From an uncultured Bacilli bacterium (GTDB lineage Bacteria > Bacillota_I > Bacilli_A > RF39 > UBA660): a stretch of 64,000 nucleotides of DNA. The notes beneath the pieces are model-generated. The model made no database searches. It was not told the DNA's origin and worked only from the letters and a program-made list of their open reading frames with translations. The stretch spans positions 7,997-71,996 of the forward strand of contig CANROU010000001.1 of NCBI GenBank assembly GCA_947632325.1. The letters are read 5' to 3'. Numbering within the stretch: position 1 is the stretch's first letter; the number at the start of each line of letters is the position of its first letter. Both the position numbers and the translations under genes were made by a program. This document shows, in pieces, positions 13,001-17,216 of the stretch.

Positions 13001-13761
13001 TAAGCATATTTATCAAGTGTTTTCCCTGCTTTAGTATTATAAATTGCACCAAATAGTTTGTTTGTCCATTCGTATGATACTATCGATTTGGTGTCTTTCC
13101 ATAAGTCTTTTGTAACTTGCCACTCCCAATTTCCTGTTGATATTCCAGAAACTATATCAACTAAACCGCTAACGATTGAACCTACGGCAGATAAAATCAA
13201 AGCAGTGAGATCACCCGCTGCTTCTACTACATGAACCAGACCTTTTACAACGGATATTACTCCATTTGCTACCGAAGCCCCCAATTTTTTCCAGAATGAT
13301 GGTTCTTCCTCTTTTACATCCGCTGCCGAAACAAAAGATTTAGAAACTACTGCTCCTGTCTCAGCTAATGGTGAATCTAATGGCAGTGGCCCTACAAAGT
13401 TAGAATCTCCTGGCCTTGGTACTGTTGTATTTGATGTTTCTATTATGGAAGTAGAATCTAACGTTGGTAAATCATTTAATCCGCCTAATTGTTGATTTAA
13501 TAATGCTTCACTGTCTCTATATTTATTTTTTATCGTGTCTAAAGTATAATATATATTTCGACATCCATTTTCTATGGTTTCAATATCCGCTATGACTGTA
13601 TCAATTCTATTTCTAAGATTATCCCTATTCAAGACTTCGGCATCTGTGTTTCTTTTAATACTATGTATTATATTAAGAACACCATCAAGATCACCCGGAA
13701 TGCCCATGTAACGACTCTTAATAATTTCCATCGTTTGGATATCTATTGTGTTAACAGCCAT
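10069..13761 (-). CDS. T7SS LXG-like polymorphic toxin, 1230 aa (LXG2)
   Basis: The N-terminal 128 aa are identical to LXG3. A glycine-zipper hydrophobic segment follows, then a long unique C-terminal region containing NGCTYVAS...GIGHAMTF. RBS AAGGAG lies 8 nt upstream of the ATG. Confidence 0.55.
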   Translation of the reverse strand: MAVNTIDIQTMEIIKSRYMGIPGDLDGVLNIIHSIKRNTDAEVLNRDNLRNRIDTVIADIETIENGCRNIYYTLDTIKNKYRDSEALLNQQLGGLNDLPTLDSTSIIETSNTTVPRPGDSNFVGPLPLDSPLAETGAVVSKSFVSAADVKEEEPSFWKKLGASVANGVISVVKGLVHVVEAAGDLTALILSAVGSIVSGLVDIVSGISTGNWEWQVTKDLWKDTKSIVSYEWTNKLFGAIYNTKAGKTLDKYAYEPFKSDGIGCKILDGVGYVTGIIALSIVTFGAAGVGFGATATVGGISINAGAVAVTAGATGFSKYTAEEWNKNSISVNYGGTDLDIEMDYETYSKIENLKQGESTTITKQIQLEDGSIQELVFTIISKGNGEYDIIDATGNTVSINSLNESNTAQGLLVGAGKGLLEGLEYYTAISTLGNVQSFGGMIKNLGQGNYVKGFVSLLKNFGYKQSFKQLGKKAAVSTFKDIGFYIDSGTFISDEVKSGIQTGEWNFKDIGTGIFSAYVSNFLGNLGGEYFSGGLNSISSAQVDPGIKADNVSSTNDVKKFNTTRNWDSEISAINNQITRHGRFSVVEVDSFDDIPKDFLGKIVDVDYVRFKVAGEDVDWKRVLAEQNLSKFNKISGNNKIEDLNVSKVNSQPYSFSEKDLKYEHSNLVKSASNRLESNINRYRYTDTNLVDGLNDSIRENGLYHFSSNVDAIMDSGYVKSSGYISSYGERKSFFFNGVPEVGAYASNLDNIPLKTEAIRISPSDEMLNSPKLKVRNYDDFAVTYSGDLKFDAESASKKYFVLRKVDDKLVYANVNKAFYDNYQNTAEGMAVAEFISKRKNIDLIKQDYFSNLSMKSTNAQITFSKVKNRVVDSDNLVIASKEKSKFKKLWDELGGNQHSFNEMLNKKIKSSETKAKLAELESIVKKRYPNATKQDISKLANRIANNGCTYVASSNVILEQLNYDDSIFQKKFGYSMKNIDGTLNHDKIVVDMYSDIADNVELNIKGFYREESFTNNIEAAEKLLNRKCANESEAAVLLSNNGWSIEGNHYSKFVNNESVIRSNIDQIEQKLFGTNSSLKSKDELLKLLKEKKISAFISSNDKPGSKLTKAKDYEKWLTQYFDNNGIDLKVTAHDILDVNRTPDEILSDLQQFYNEGYSIVVNAVGGKPIWMTDGKFMGGVTLGDDGIGHAMTFRGISDSGDIMVSSWKKIFKISKEYLTNLHCIAVKIK

Positions 13762-13812
13762 AACATCTACTCCTTATTATACACCATTATATAATAACCC
13801 CCCCCCCTTGTC
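13376..13812. repeat. direct repeat copy 1 (LXG N-terminal coding region + 5'UTR + promoter)
   Basis: 13376-13777 is identical to 16780-17181. Similarity continues with 2 mismatches and a 1-nt homopolymer length difference through the promoter. Confidence 0.85.
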
Positions 13813-13850
13813 AACTTTTTGTTACCTTTTTCGATGTATTATAAAGAGCT
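13771..13850 (-). promoter_or_regulatory. promoter of LXG2 operon: TTGACA-A-G10-TTATTA-TATAAT (17-nt spacer containing the G tract)
   Basis: Read directly on the coding strand. The C10 run at 13798-13807 lies between the -35 and -10 hexamers. The 5'UTR that follows carries AAGGAG. Confidence 0.55.
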
Positions 13851-13862
13851 ATTTAATACTAT

Positions 13863-14566: not shown

Positions 14567-14572
14567 CCTCTC

Positions 14573-14854
14573 TTATTTATAATCTTTATAACCCAAATCT
14601 TTTAATTCCTGTAATGTCGTCTTACGAACTCCATTTTTACCAGTATATAGATAAGCTGATGAATTAACTCCATCATCAATAGTAAATAATACTGCAAATT
14701 CAGAGGTTTGAGAATTTACAATATATTGTTTTTTTACCAGAGCAAGCTCTCCATAAGTAAATTCCGCTCCTTCTAGTGCATCAAACCACACGTTACCTTC
14801 CATAACTCCAACAGAACTAATTTTAGGAAAAATTCGTTGTTGTACTCTGGCCAT
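14573..14854 (-). CDS. hypothetical small protein, candidate immunity protein for the LXG3 toxin
   Basis: 93-aa ORF whose 5' end overlaps the toxin 3' end by 32 nt. An alternative start at 14803 is possible. Confidence 0.35.
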   Translation of the reverse strand: MARVQQRIFPKISSVGVMEGNVWFDALEGAEFTYGELALVKKQYIVNSQTSEFAVLFTIDDGVNSSAYLYTGKNGVRKTTLQELKDLGYKDYK

Positions 14855-17165
14855 TTAACCGTTTTGACATCAAGCCTTCTGGATTATATTGAAGTTCATC
14901 AAAATAGCCATGTTGGTTATTTACATATCCCAAAATATACTCTTTTTTCAATTTTGGAGTAGAACCACTATAGTCAATCAATTTATTCATATTATCTATA
15001 TCACCTTTAGGTATGGCGGTAATAACAATATCAGCATTACCATAACTTTTATAATAACAACCCCGATAAATATCGCACAAATATCTATAATATGAAGCTT
15101 CACTCTTGTCTGTATAAAGGCTAATATTATTATTCAAATCAACTGCTTCGTCAACGACACCAGAACTAAGATCTCCAGTAAGCAGTAAGCCATCATTCAT
15201 AATTAAAGAGCCCAATTGTCCCCCACTTTTATGCACTCCAATAATATAATCATCTTGAAAGAAAATGTCTTCTAATCGTTTACCCATAACCTCATCAAAA
15301 TTAAGTTTATCAAAGTGACTTTGAAGATAATTATTAGAGAATTTGTGTGTATATTTACCGAGATTTCCTTTACCGATAGTTCGCCTAACAGCTTCTAATT
15401 TTGTTTGCTCCAACCAGAGTGAATCGCGCATTTGATACAATTGCTCATACATTTTTAAATCTTTGCCCGATAAATTTGATGACGTTCTAGCATCTAGCGC
15501 CTGTTTAACATTATCTGGAGCGTTTTCATACATTTTATTATATTTGGACATAGACTTAGATAATGAGTTTTCCAAATCTGTCATACGTAAAGCATCTTTA
15601 TATGACATTTTATTTTTATAAGCTTTTACTCCAGCACTAGCAAAATCCACGGCTTCCCCAAATCCAGAAGAAAGTCCCGCAATAGCGGACTGCACACCAA
15701 CGGCTTTCCAACCACCCGTTCTATCCCAGGCTTCTTTCCAAGAAATATTATCTTGAATAGAAGTTACTGTAGTTTGAAAAGGGACCTCTACCGCTCCAGT
15801 TAAAGTATCTAAGCCCATTCTCATAAAACTTGACGTTAGCTTCTTTAAAAGGGGATTAGATATTTTAGAAGTGATTTTACCAAATTGTGCTCCGCTTATT
15901 TTATCACCAGCAAACCATTGACCTGCTTCCCAAAGACCTTTTATTGTACCAAGGCCGTAGCCTTTTACTAAGCCAGTTTCATCTACCGTTATTTGAGTAG
16001 CTTCATCACCCACAACAGCCCAATATGTACCGTCTTCTTTTTTAATGTATGATATAATTGTACCATTTGCTTCCACGTCAACTTGCTGTCCTTTTCTCAA
16101 TTGTTGTAATTGATTATAAGTAAGTGAACCCAATTCTTGCTCACTACCATCCTCGGTAGTTACATTGTTTTGATTCCAGGCATCAGCAGTTCCTTTCCCA
16201 AAACCAGCAAGACCGGCTATTATGGCACGAAGAGTTCCAGGTGAAAGTATTTTACTACCAATGCTAAGTCCTTGACCGCCGGCACTAGCACCTCCAGTAA
16301 AACAAGCCGTAATTAAAATACTACCAATATAACCAATTCCGTTGGATATTTCACATGCAGTACTATCTGGTTTACCCCATTCATACGAATTTTCTTTAAG
16401 AAATTTCCCTACCGCAAAATCGTCGTAATACCAAGTTGAAAAACTATCAACCCATTCAGTACTGGTAATGGTTTTAATCATTGATCTATACTCAGCACCT
16501 GGATCTATATCAAGTCCCACAGCATCGGTAACCGCACTTGCAGCATATGAAATTAACGTTGGGGTAATTGAAGACAACAATACTAATGATTTTACCAAGT
16601 CTTCAAAGCCTGTCATGACACCTTTTATCATACTTATACAAATATTATCAAGAGCACACCATGTTTTTACAAAACCTTCCCCAATCTTACTAAGCCAGCC
16701 ACCATCCTTCCCTTCAGCCGCTGACTTATAACCCGTTTTTTCATCAGTAATAGTTGCCCCCGTCGCTTCTAATTGCATATCTAATGGCAGTGGCCCTACA
16801 AAGTTAGAATCTCCTGGCCTTGGTACTGTTGTATTTGATGTTTCTATTATGGAAGTAGAATCTAACGTTGGTAAATCATTTAATCCGCCTAATTGTTGAT
16901 TTAATAATGCTTCACTGTCTCTATATTTATTTTTTATCGTGTCTAAAGTATAATATATATTTCGACATCCATTTTCTATGGTTTCAATATCCGCTATGAC
17001 TGTATCAATTCTATTTCTAAGATTATCCCTATTCAAGACTTCGGCATCTGTGTTTCTTTTAATACTATGTATTATATTAAGAACACCATCAAGATCACCC
17101 GGAATGCCCATGTAACGACTCTTAATAATTTCCATCGTTTGGATATCTATTGTGTTAACAGCCAT
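14823..17165 (-). CDS. T7SS LXG-like polymorphic toxin, 780 aa (LXG3)
   Basis: N-terminal domain is identical to LXG2. A glycine-rich hydrophobic segment follows, then a unique ~250-aa C-terminal domain of unknown type. Confidence 0.55.
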   Translation of the reverse strand: MAVNTIDIQTMEIIKSRYMGIPGDLDGVLNIIHSIKRNTDAEVLNRDNLRNRIDTVIADIETIENGCRNIYYTLDTIKNKYRDSEALLNQQLGGLNDLPTLDSTSIIETSNTTVPRPGDSNFVGPLPLDMQLEATGATITDEKTGYKSAAEGKDGGWLSKIGEGFVKTWCALDNICISMIKGVMTGFEDLVKSLVLLSSITPTLISYAASAVTDAVGLDIDPGAEYRSMIKTITSTEWVDSFSTWYYDDFAVGKFLKENSYEWGKPDSTACEISNGIGYIGSILITACFTGGASAGGQGLSIGSKILSPGTLRAIIAGLAGFGKGTADAWNQNNVTTEDGSEQELGSLTYNQLQQLRKGQQVDVEANGTIISYIKKEDGTYWAVVGDEATQITVDETGLVKGYGLGTIKGLWEAGQWFAGDKISGAQFGKITSKISNPLLKKLTSSFMRMGLDTLTGAVEVPFQTTVTSIQDNISWKEAWDRTGGWKAVGVQSAIAGLSSGFGEAVDFASAGVKAYKNKMSYKDALRMTDLENSLSKSMSKYNKMYENAPDNVKQALDARTSSNLSGKDLKMYEQLYQMRDSLWLEQTKLEAVRRTIGKGNLGKYTHKFSNNYLQSHFDKLNFDEVMGKRLEDIFFQDDYIIGVHKSGGQLGSLIMNDGLLLTGDLSSGVVDEAVDLNNNISLYTDKSEASYYRYLCDIYRGCYYKSYGNADIVITAIPKGDIDNMNKLIDYSGSTPKLKKEYILGYVNNQHGYFDELQYNPEGLMSKRLNGQSTTTNFS

Positions 17166-17216
17166 AACATCTACTCCTTATCACACACCATTATATAATA
17201 ACCCCCCCCCTTGTCA
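16780..17216. repeat. direct repeat copy 2 (LXG N-terminal coding region + 5'UTR + promoter)
   Basis: See copy 1. The two copies are 3404 bp apart. Confidence 0.85.

Follow-up and report, generated by a model that had tools for sequence, protein, structure and literature searches.

Two of the three toxin candidates encoded at a type VIIb secretion system (T7SSb) locus of an uncultured Bacilli bacterium begin with the same segment of DNA, and the explanation that we consider likely is that the locus is a polymorphic-toxin array in which these two heads were recently homogenized by recombination. The locus lies in a stretch of 64,000 nucleotides (nt) from contig CANROU010000001.1 (assembly GCA_947632325.1, positions 7,997 to 71,996), called the window below, and its toxin candidates are named T1, T2, and T3 (Table 1). 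From its gene content the locus reads as a chromosomal T7SSb polymorphic-toxin array of uncultured gut Bacilli with low guanine-plus-cytosine (GC) content, made up of three predicted cassettes, each with a toxin gene, one or more small open reading frames (ORFs), and a gene for a DUF4176 chaperone. The shuffling of cassettes through repeated heads is already well known, and in that respect the core finding is an ordinary one; its unusual aspects are a very rare, non-LXG head of presumed export function and poly-G tracts in the promoter spacers.

Extent and Breakpoints of the Repeat

A repeat search and a base-by-base comparison placed an exact identity of 403 bp at an offset of 3404 (13375-13777 = 16779-17181), a length of match that is impossible by chance in 64 kb. 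A BLASTN search of the window against itself gave an alignment of 457 bp at 99.34% identity (13375-13831 versus 16779-17234), which contains 2 mismatches and a single gap. That gap falls in a homopolymer that on the coding (minus) strand is G10 in the copy heading T2 and G9 in the copy heading T3. An earlier inspection of the letters (the sequence-only reading) had given 402 bp of identity starting at 13376, identical N-terminal domains of 128 codons, and identity through the promoter apart from two mismatches and the homopolymer length. The repeat is real, its start was off by one base, the N-terminal identity holds over 129 codons, and the self-alignment confirms the description of the promoter.

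The exact part of the repeat comprises the 129 codons and 16 nt of leader, and the repeat as a whole takes in a promoter, a leader of ~25 nt with an AAGGAG ribosome-binding site, and codons 1-129 of T2 and T3. There are 2 single-nucleotide polymorphisms (SNPs) and the indel in its promoter part and 0 differences in its coding part. On the upstream side identity fades ~55 nt past the -35 box, and at the distal end nucleotide identity between T2 and T3 drops abruptly to ~54% directly past the breakpoint, which falls between codons 129 and 130, inside a linker motif conserved in the family (PGDxxFxGPLPLD, breakpoint, xQLExTGAxV). The junctions of the head with what follows are in frame in both T2 and T3, and both appear functional.

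Recombination as the Probable Source of Head Identity

The heads of T2 and T3 show 0 differences in 403 nt, synonymous sites and the noncoding leader included, whereas those of T1 and T2 show 71 differences in 324 nt, with 22 of 108 codons differing only synonymously. Set against the 78% nucleotide identity to T1, a measure of how far a head normally diverges in this genome, and the ~54% past the breakpoint, this absence of differences points to recent recombination, by which the head was almost certainly copied. The bodies of T2 and T3 are only ~27% identical at the protein level, so the identity of the heads is secondary and does not reflect a fresh duplication of the whole gene; T2 and T3 are old paralogues. 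Purifying selection on a common export signal, acting without recombination, might also be thought to keep heads identical, since the head is conserved in its family and probably functional. Protein constraint cannot, however, fix 129 codons without a synonymous change together with an identical leader; T1, at the same locus, carries its 22 synonymous-only codon differences, and two heads at one locus of a sister species are only 36% identical. We give selection alone practically no credence, and as a cause of the identity it is effectively refuted by the identity at synonymous and noncoding positions. The signature of recombination that the sequence-only reading saw in the shared head is therefore upheld.

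We propose that the head, promoter, and leader of T2 and T3 were homogenized very recently through RecA-type homologous recombination, either by gene conversion or by unequal crossover or cassette insertion with the head as homology arm. Because the breakpoint lies in a disordered linker, the cassette-specific parts would move together downstream of the common head: a probable chaperone-binding segment, the scaffold, the toxin domain, the immunity candidates, and the DUF4176 gene. The position of the breakpoint thus suggests an exchangeable unit of chaperone-binding segment, toxin, immunity, and chaperone. The two identical 403-bp heads would now be substrates for deleting or duplicating the 3404-bp T3 unit. 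Two other kinds of element were considered and rejected: a silent-cassette system like pilE/pilS, as each copy has its full promoter and a complete ORF, and a site-specific excision element, as a recombinase gene is lacking and the repeat is itself coding.

Cassettes of polymorphic toxin systems can be deleted, duplicated, or swapped through a repeated head (Zhang et al. 2012 and Jamet & Nassif 2015, as cited in PMC12558993). The locus shares with the orphan cassettes of Rhs, CdiA-CT, and type VI secretion systems a conserved, repeated 5' segment that serves as a homology handle. It differs from them in having two complete promoter-bearing units instead of a main gene with silent 3' orphans and in a repeat that takes in the promoter and the whole export domain.

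One alternative is a variant of this explanation, as both need recombination at the head: the body of T3 (or T2) would have come in by horizontal transfer, together with its genes for immunity and chaperone, and homologous recombination would have integrated it, with the resident head (and a downstream arm) as homology and the duplicated head as a by-product. The sharpness of the distal breakpoint within the conserved linker motif (PLPLD, then xQLExTGAxV), the low identity of the bodies, the closer resemblance of T3 past the breakpoint to T1 than to T2, and the confinement of the SNPs and indel to the promoter part of the repeat would all suit such an arrival. We nevertheless think it rather unlikely: neither a donor sequence nor a mobile-element gene nor a second junction was found, the GC content of the toxin units is like that of their neighborhood, and the rarity of the family makes it difficult to point to an external donor. 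Recent homogenization of the T2 and T3 heads is the reading that we carry forward.

A Candidate Deletion Junction in Metagenome Contigs

Contigs of the same species were recovered through exact-protein look-ups (ENA ERZ27249080, ERZ27249559, ERZ27249567, and ERZ27249578; Logan ERR10663738-41), all at low coverage (2-4x). Most are 100% identical to the window and end at the repeat. From the flank with the M23-peptidase gene, contig L002 ends 6 nt before the point of divergence and L003 reaches 55 nt into the exact repeat; from the flank with DUF4176_c, L006, L007, and L009 run into the repeat. That contigs from both unique flanks break at or in the repeat independently supports a genuine two-copy repeat. 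An assembly artefact, in which the source contig, probably from a short-read metagenome-assembled genome (MAG), carried a consensus or chimeric head wrongly joined to one toxin body and the 100% identity would not be biological, would fit the recording of full-length T3 on a single contig and the origin of all related contigs in 2-4x metagenomes, where they end at the repeat. Yet both reading frames are uninterrupted across the junctions and the family linker motif continues through them, the end points of L002 and L003 are what a genuine two-copy repeat that branches would give in independent samples, and distinct promoter variants (AtAa/G10 versus GtGa/G9) recur in L001-L003 and in L006, L007, and L009. 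We regard an artefact as very improbable and continue with a true repeat homogenized by recombination.

The sequence-only reading had proposed that recombination between the repeats would delete or duplicate the 3.4-kb interval, and one contig carries the predicted junction. L001 (15.5 kb, 3.8x) runs from the M23-peptidase gene through promoter P3 (G9, with the P3-type SNPs) and the head into the T2 body, p224, and DUF4176_b, and its junction is exactly what a crossover inside the 403 identical bp would leave, with 3404 bp deleted. Over 11 kb, 18 SNPs separate the strain of L001 from the window; 17 fall within 505 bp (26367-26871) of a Fic-domain gene (26028-26972) and 1 in the other ~10.5 kb. 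The cluster in the Fic gene suggests either a patch of recombination or a gene that is locally hypervariable; its SNPs are not adenine-specific, so the gene is no obvious target of a diversity-generating retroelement.

Several observations weigh against our interpretation. The junction in L001 is ambiguous because its sample (ERZ27249080) also holds DNA of the T3 unit, on contig L020 (829 bp, 2.1x); L001 may be a mis-join made by the assembler through the repeat, and for the two contigs in one sample of 2-4x coverage a mis-join, a mixed population, and a rearranged strain are all possible. The junction of the head with the T3 body, and with it full-length T3, is found on one assembled contig only, the 132-kb source of the window. 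Ongoing exchange is thus no more than plausible. For the activity of T2 and T3 there are no Pfam, NCBIfam, or PDB matches, and the likeness of the head to WXG100 proteins (see below) is statistically weak, with an hhalign probability of 45% and Foldseek E values of ~0.5. Deletion or duplication of the T3 unit is mechanistically expected and possibly observed, and deletion may occur in vivo.

At its end (799-829), L020 departs from the window: its last 31 nt, directly after the p96 stop, diverge into ATGAGCGTGTACAGAGAATATAGGCCGTTGGAAGA (MSVYREYRPLE...; 45% GC), for which no match was found among the sequences compared. These letters either belong to another gene, one that comes after the T3 unit in the strain of L020, or are the chimeric end of a contig.

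A Predicted Helical Hairpin at the Head of the Toxins

The toxins had been labeled LXG by the sequence-only reading, and this label must be given up: hmmscan with T1, T2, T3, and the isolated 129-aa head gave no match to LXG (PF04740) and no family match at all in Pfam (E <= 10) or NCBIfam (E <= 1), and the head appears instead to be a WXG100-like hairpin of ~95 aa. An AlphaFold2 (AF2) model built from a 7-sequence alignment has one helix at residues 8-38, a turn, and a second helix at 41-96, with a predicted local distance difference test (pLDDT) of 85-96, followed by a disordered tail (residues 97-142 are predicted to be disordered). The top Foldseek matches in the PDB were 4lws (EsxA), 2vrz (EsxA), 3o9o, and 4j10 (EsxB), at a TM-score (TMt) of ~0.7 and E values of ~0.5-2, which are nonsignificant, as is to be expected of such a simple fold. 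An hhalign comparison with the three WXG100 proteins of the locus aligned the head end to end (probability 45%, E = 2e-4), and a search of the PDB with the head profile returned mostly coiled-coil noise and two WXG100 entries from group B Streptococcus (GBS) over residues 1-94 (E ~0.4-0.6).

The head matches WXG100 proteins (ESAT-6/EsxA) in size and in its helix-turn-helix fold, and a stand-alone family member of 96 aa exists (P0013). It differs from them in lacking both a match to PF06013 and the W-x-G at the turn, which reads K-R-N-T-D-x-E-V-L-N-R (RNTDxEV). Its membership in WXG100 is therefore a loose one, in which the fold matches and the motif and profile do not. As modeled, the head is a WXG100-like helical hairpin without W-x-G and is not LXG by any test used. 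We infer an export function for it and presume that it acts as an export and targeting module.

The resemblance of the toxins to LXG toxins (Streptococcus intermedius TelA-D and those of Bacillus subtilis) is one of architecture. In both, a helical trafficking domain at the N-terminus is joined to a C-terminal toxin part that varies, and immunity genes follow; both lie in or near an ess locus, with several paralogues per genome and an association of DUF4176 (Ltc) with a disordered middle region. The toxins described here differ in having no PF04740 or NCBIfam match, a single hairpin of ~95 aa where the LXG domain has ~200 aa, an extremely rare head family, and a toxin gene that comes first after the promoter, with no DUF3130/DUF3958 Lap-type genes upstream, as judged from Pfam and the neighboring ORFs. 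The WXG100 proteins of the locus might stand in for such targeting factors.

When the head profile was run with HMMER against 1.84 billion representative proteins, 14 matches came back, 3 of which are T1-T3 and ~5 of which are clear relatives (P0004, P0005, P0007, P0010, and the stand-alone P0013). The head family is very rare, with about eight clear members in that set. A word-index search found no homologues of the head, an alignment of the head searched against GTDB genomes and JGI metagenomes found no relatives, and an EssC-based genome scan gave 9 loci from gut MAGs, at 47-49% identity, that all lack the head within 10 kb. Across the family one head stands on unrelated C-termini, which differ among T1 (YD-like), T2, T3, P0004, P0005, P0007, and P0010, as in polymorphic toxins; for T2 and T3 the immunity part of such a system is assigned by position. 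P0010 has a glycine zipper C-terminus, and a DUF4176 gene comes after its gene.

The C-terminus of P0005 carries two ADP-ribosyltransferase domains (ADPrib_exo_Tox, PF03496, 1.4e-36). Its gene lies in a T7SS locus of a sister species (L028 and L029, from Logan SRR23925011 and SRR23925000), where EssC is 74% identical. Downstream of it come a 64-aa ORF, an ADP-ribosylglycohydrolase gene (4.6e-69), two DUF4176-like genes, a LysM gene, EssC, and a YukD-like gene. ADP-ribosylglycohydrolase is the classical antidote to an ADP-ribosylating toxin. The T7SSb core genes (EssC, WXG100, YukD/EsaB) are present both at our locus and at that of P0005. A second toxin gene, cut at its N-terminal end, lies upstream of P0005 and supplies the other head of the 36% comparison; a protein-kinase-like gene is also among the genes that follow P0005. 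A non-LXG head tied to DUF4176 chaperones and a T7SSb in uncultured gut Bacilli would widen the catalogue of T7SS targeting domains.

Organization of the T7SSb Locus and the Toxin Bodies

All genes of the toxin locus are on the minus strand. Their order on that strand is FtsE, FtsX, an M23/PcsB-like peptidase (17352-18557), a terminator, P3, T3, p93, p96, and DUF4176_c, then an AT-rich hairpin, P2, T2, p224, and DUF4176_b, then P1, two WXG100 genes, a LysM-WXG100 gene, T1, DUF4176_a, EssC, and a YukD-like gene. That the toxins belong to a secretion system, as had been supposed, is borne out by EssC, which matches FtsK_SpoIIIE at 7.6e-45, by the three WXG100 genes and the YukD-like gene encoded beside it, and by the three DUF4176 genes, one of which ends each cassette (E 1e-27 to 1e-29). 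As the sequence-only reading had it, the stretch between the two repeat copies carries the body of T3, two small ORFs (read there as immunity genes), and a DUF4176 gene; the promoter of the next unit lies there as well. p96 gave no significant family match. DUF4176 (Ltc) proteins are toxin-specific chaperones that bind the disordered middle region of T7SS toxins (PMC12478183), which fits the single DUF4176 gene per cassette and the disordered linker found here. Immunity roles for the small ORFs and the pairing of each toxin with its chaperone are putative.

Table 1. Coordinates of the repeat, promoters, and genes of the toxin locus within the window
Feature	Position	Strand	Description
YukD-like gene	571-825	-	T7SSb core gene
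EssC ATPase	829-5424	-	T7SSb core gene
DUF4176_a	5444-5782	-	Cassette of T1
T1	5787-7559	-	Third paralogue, 590 aa; head 71% (aa) and 78% (nt) identical to T2/T3; YD-repeat-like body
Three WXG100 genes	8404-8724, 8099-8389, 7576-8046 (LysM-fused)	-	Downstream of P1; family match
Promoter P1	8761-8791	-	TTGACA-T-G9(8776-8784)-TCCTTATTA-TATAAT, 19-nt spacer; ahead of WXG100/LysM-WXG/T1/DUF4176/EssC operon
DUF4176_b	9010-9393	-	127 aa, predicted chaperone of T2 unit; 1.5e-27
p224	9386-10060	-	ORF starting 9 nt past T2 stop; candidate immunity gene by position
T2	10069-13761	-	Toxin candidate, 1230 aa; same head as T3; unique C-terminal 800 aa
Repeat copy A, head of T2	13375-13831	-	Promoter P2, leader, codons 1-129; exact part 13375-13777
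Promoter P2	13786-13814	-	TTGACA, 17-nt spacer, TATAAT (12/12 consensus); G10 (13798-13807) within spacer
AT-rich hairpin	13869-13910	-	16-bp hairpin between A and U runs, terminator-like end of T3 unit; z = -3.4
DUF4176_c	13929-14279	-	116 aa, predicted toxin-specific chaperone of T3 unit; PF13780, 3.5e-27
p96	14276-14566	-	Second small ORF of T3 unit (93 aa as called in metagenome contigs)
p93	14573-14854	-	93-aa ORF, 32-nt overlap with T3 stop; candidate immunity gene by position
T3	14823-17165	-	Toxin candidate, 780 aa; aa 1-96 WXG100-like hairpin, 97-145 disordered linker
Repeat copy B, head of T3	16779-17234	-	Promoter P3, leader, codons 1-129; exact part 16779-17181
Promoter P3	17190-17217	-	TTGACA, 16-nt spacer, TATAAT (12/12 consensus); G9 (17202-17210) within spacer

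The two toxins had been described as diverging completely after the head, which is wrong for residues 130-428: past residue 129, T2 and T3 stay ~27% identical up to residue ~428 and only then become unrelated. T3 has a scaffold in common with T2 and P0005, extending to ~aa 420-536 and shared over a longer stretch with P0005 (to ~aa 500-536), followed by a unique C-terminal domain. T2 contains two hydrophobic segments (aa 175-208 and 264-297). A word-index search found no homologues of the C-terminus of T3 or that of T2, comparison of T2 and T3 with PDB sequences gave no match, and a single-sequence AF2 model of the T3 C-terminal domain had a pLDDT of 38, too low for a fold search. Within the T1 coding sequence there is a G7 run on the coding strand (6825-6831), whose GGG GGG codons are unusual for a genome of 29% GC and which is a possible site of frameshift slippage. 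Between DUF4176_b and P1, ~220 nt (8792-9009) are GC-richer than their surroundings and contain no ORF and no terminator-like fold (z = -1.1); L001 ends within them (8953).

Homopolymer Tracts in the Toxin Promoters

P2 and P3 are the sole 12/12 matches in 13 kb to the sigma-70 consensus TTGACA-N16-18-TATAAT. P1 is 89% identical to P2 over 81 nt; it combines a G9 tract with a 3-nt TCC insert, and the loss of one or two G would give it an 18- or 17-nt spacer. Only three runs of G or C of at least 8 occur in the window (29% GC), and each lies between the -35 and -10 boxes of one of these homologous promoters. That the tract was kept while its flanks diverged argues for its maintenance by selection. 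No such G tract occurs at the sister-species locus, and none of the 9 loci from the EssC-based scan has a poly-G promoter at a toxin.

Among the recovered sequences, the P3 tract is G9 in four of four and the P1 tract is G9 in four of four, and the P2 tract is G10 in the window, L006, and L009 and G9 in L007. The sample of L007 (ERZ27249559), and that sample only, also shows A5 shortened to A4 elsewhere (~8394, L023), in the spacer of the ribosome-binding site of the WXG100 gene at 8099-8389. The length difference in L007 weakly indicates either real homopolymer instability or a technical error specific to that sample.

Phase variation through a homopolymer in a promoter spacer occurs in Neisseria porA and opc, in the poly-G promoters of Treponema pallidum tpr, and in the poly-A promoters of Mycoplasma hyorhinis vlp; we know of no description of it for T7SSb toxin promoters. 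As in the known cases, the G9-G10 tract here stands exactly between perfect -35 and -10 boxes, where a slip of 1 nt would move the spacer among 16, 17, and 18 nt, and the paralogous copies differ by one G. Homopolymer slippage linked to T7SS has been described within genes, for essC/esaA of GBS (PMC9900821) and for ESX-1 of Mycobacterium tuberculosis. The three G9-G10 promoters weakly suggest candidate slipped-strand, phase-variable switches.

Taken further, the locus might be a two-layer system in which simple sequence repeat tracts switch or tune the units independently and recombination shuffles the cassettes, all on an unrecognized, non-LXG, WXG100-like export domain; we offer this only tentatively and consider it doubtful. 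If it were true, a single clone would express different combinations of T7SS toxins, and identical heads would let cassettes be deleted, duplicated, and swapped. With a maintained G9-G10 spacer tract in all three units, the locus lends itself to a direct test of whether T7SS toxin expression is phase-variable.

A longer tract was seen in a distant relative, a gut MAG whose EssC is 48% identical: a G12 tract in L012 (6537-6548) lies just upstream of a gene for a 421-aa membrane-anchored protein and adjoins prophage lysis genes and an ORF that by eye looks like one for a reverse transcriptase. It may be that this lineage uses long G tracts for regulation repeatedly.

Other Features of the Window

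Outside the toxin locus, the ORF for release factor 2 (RF2, prfB; 21980-22888) has a GTG start and lacks the usual N-terminal part, its PCRF match beginning at profile position 38. This form is consistent with a programmed +1 frameshift, which is classical for prfB. A paralogous release-factor gene at ~46.8 kb is 81% identical to the RF2 ORF over 103 nt. The sole Rfam match in the window is an L31-Firmicutes ribosomal-protein leader on the minus strand (40522-40550; RF03156, 37.6 bits).

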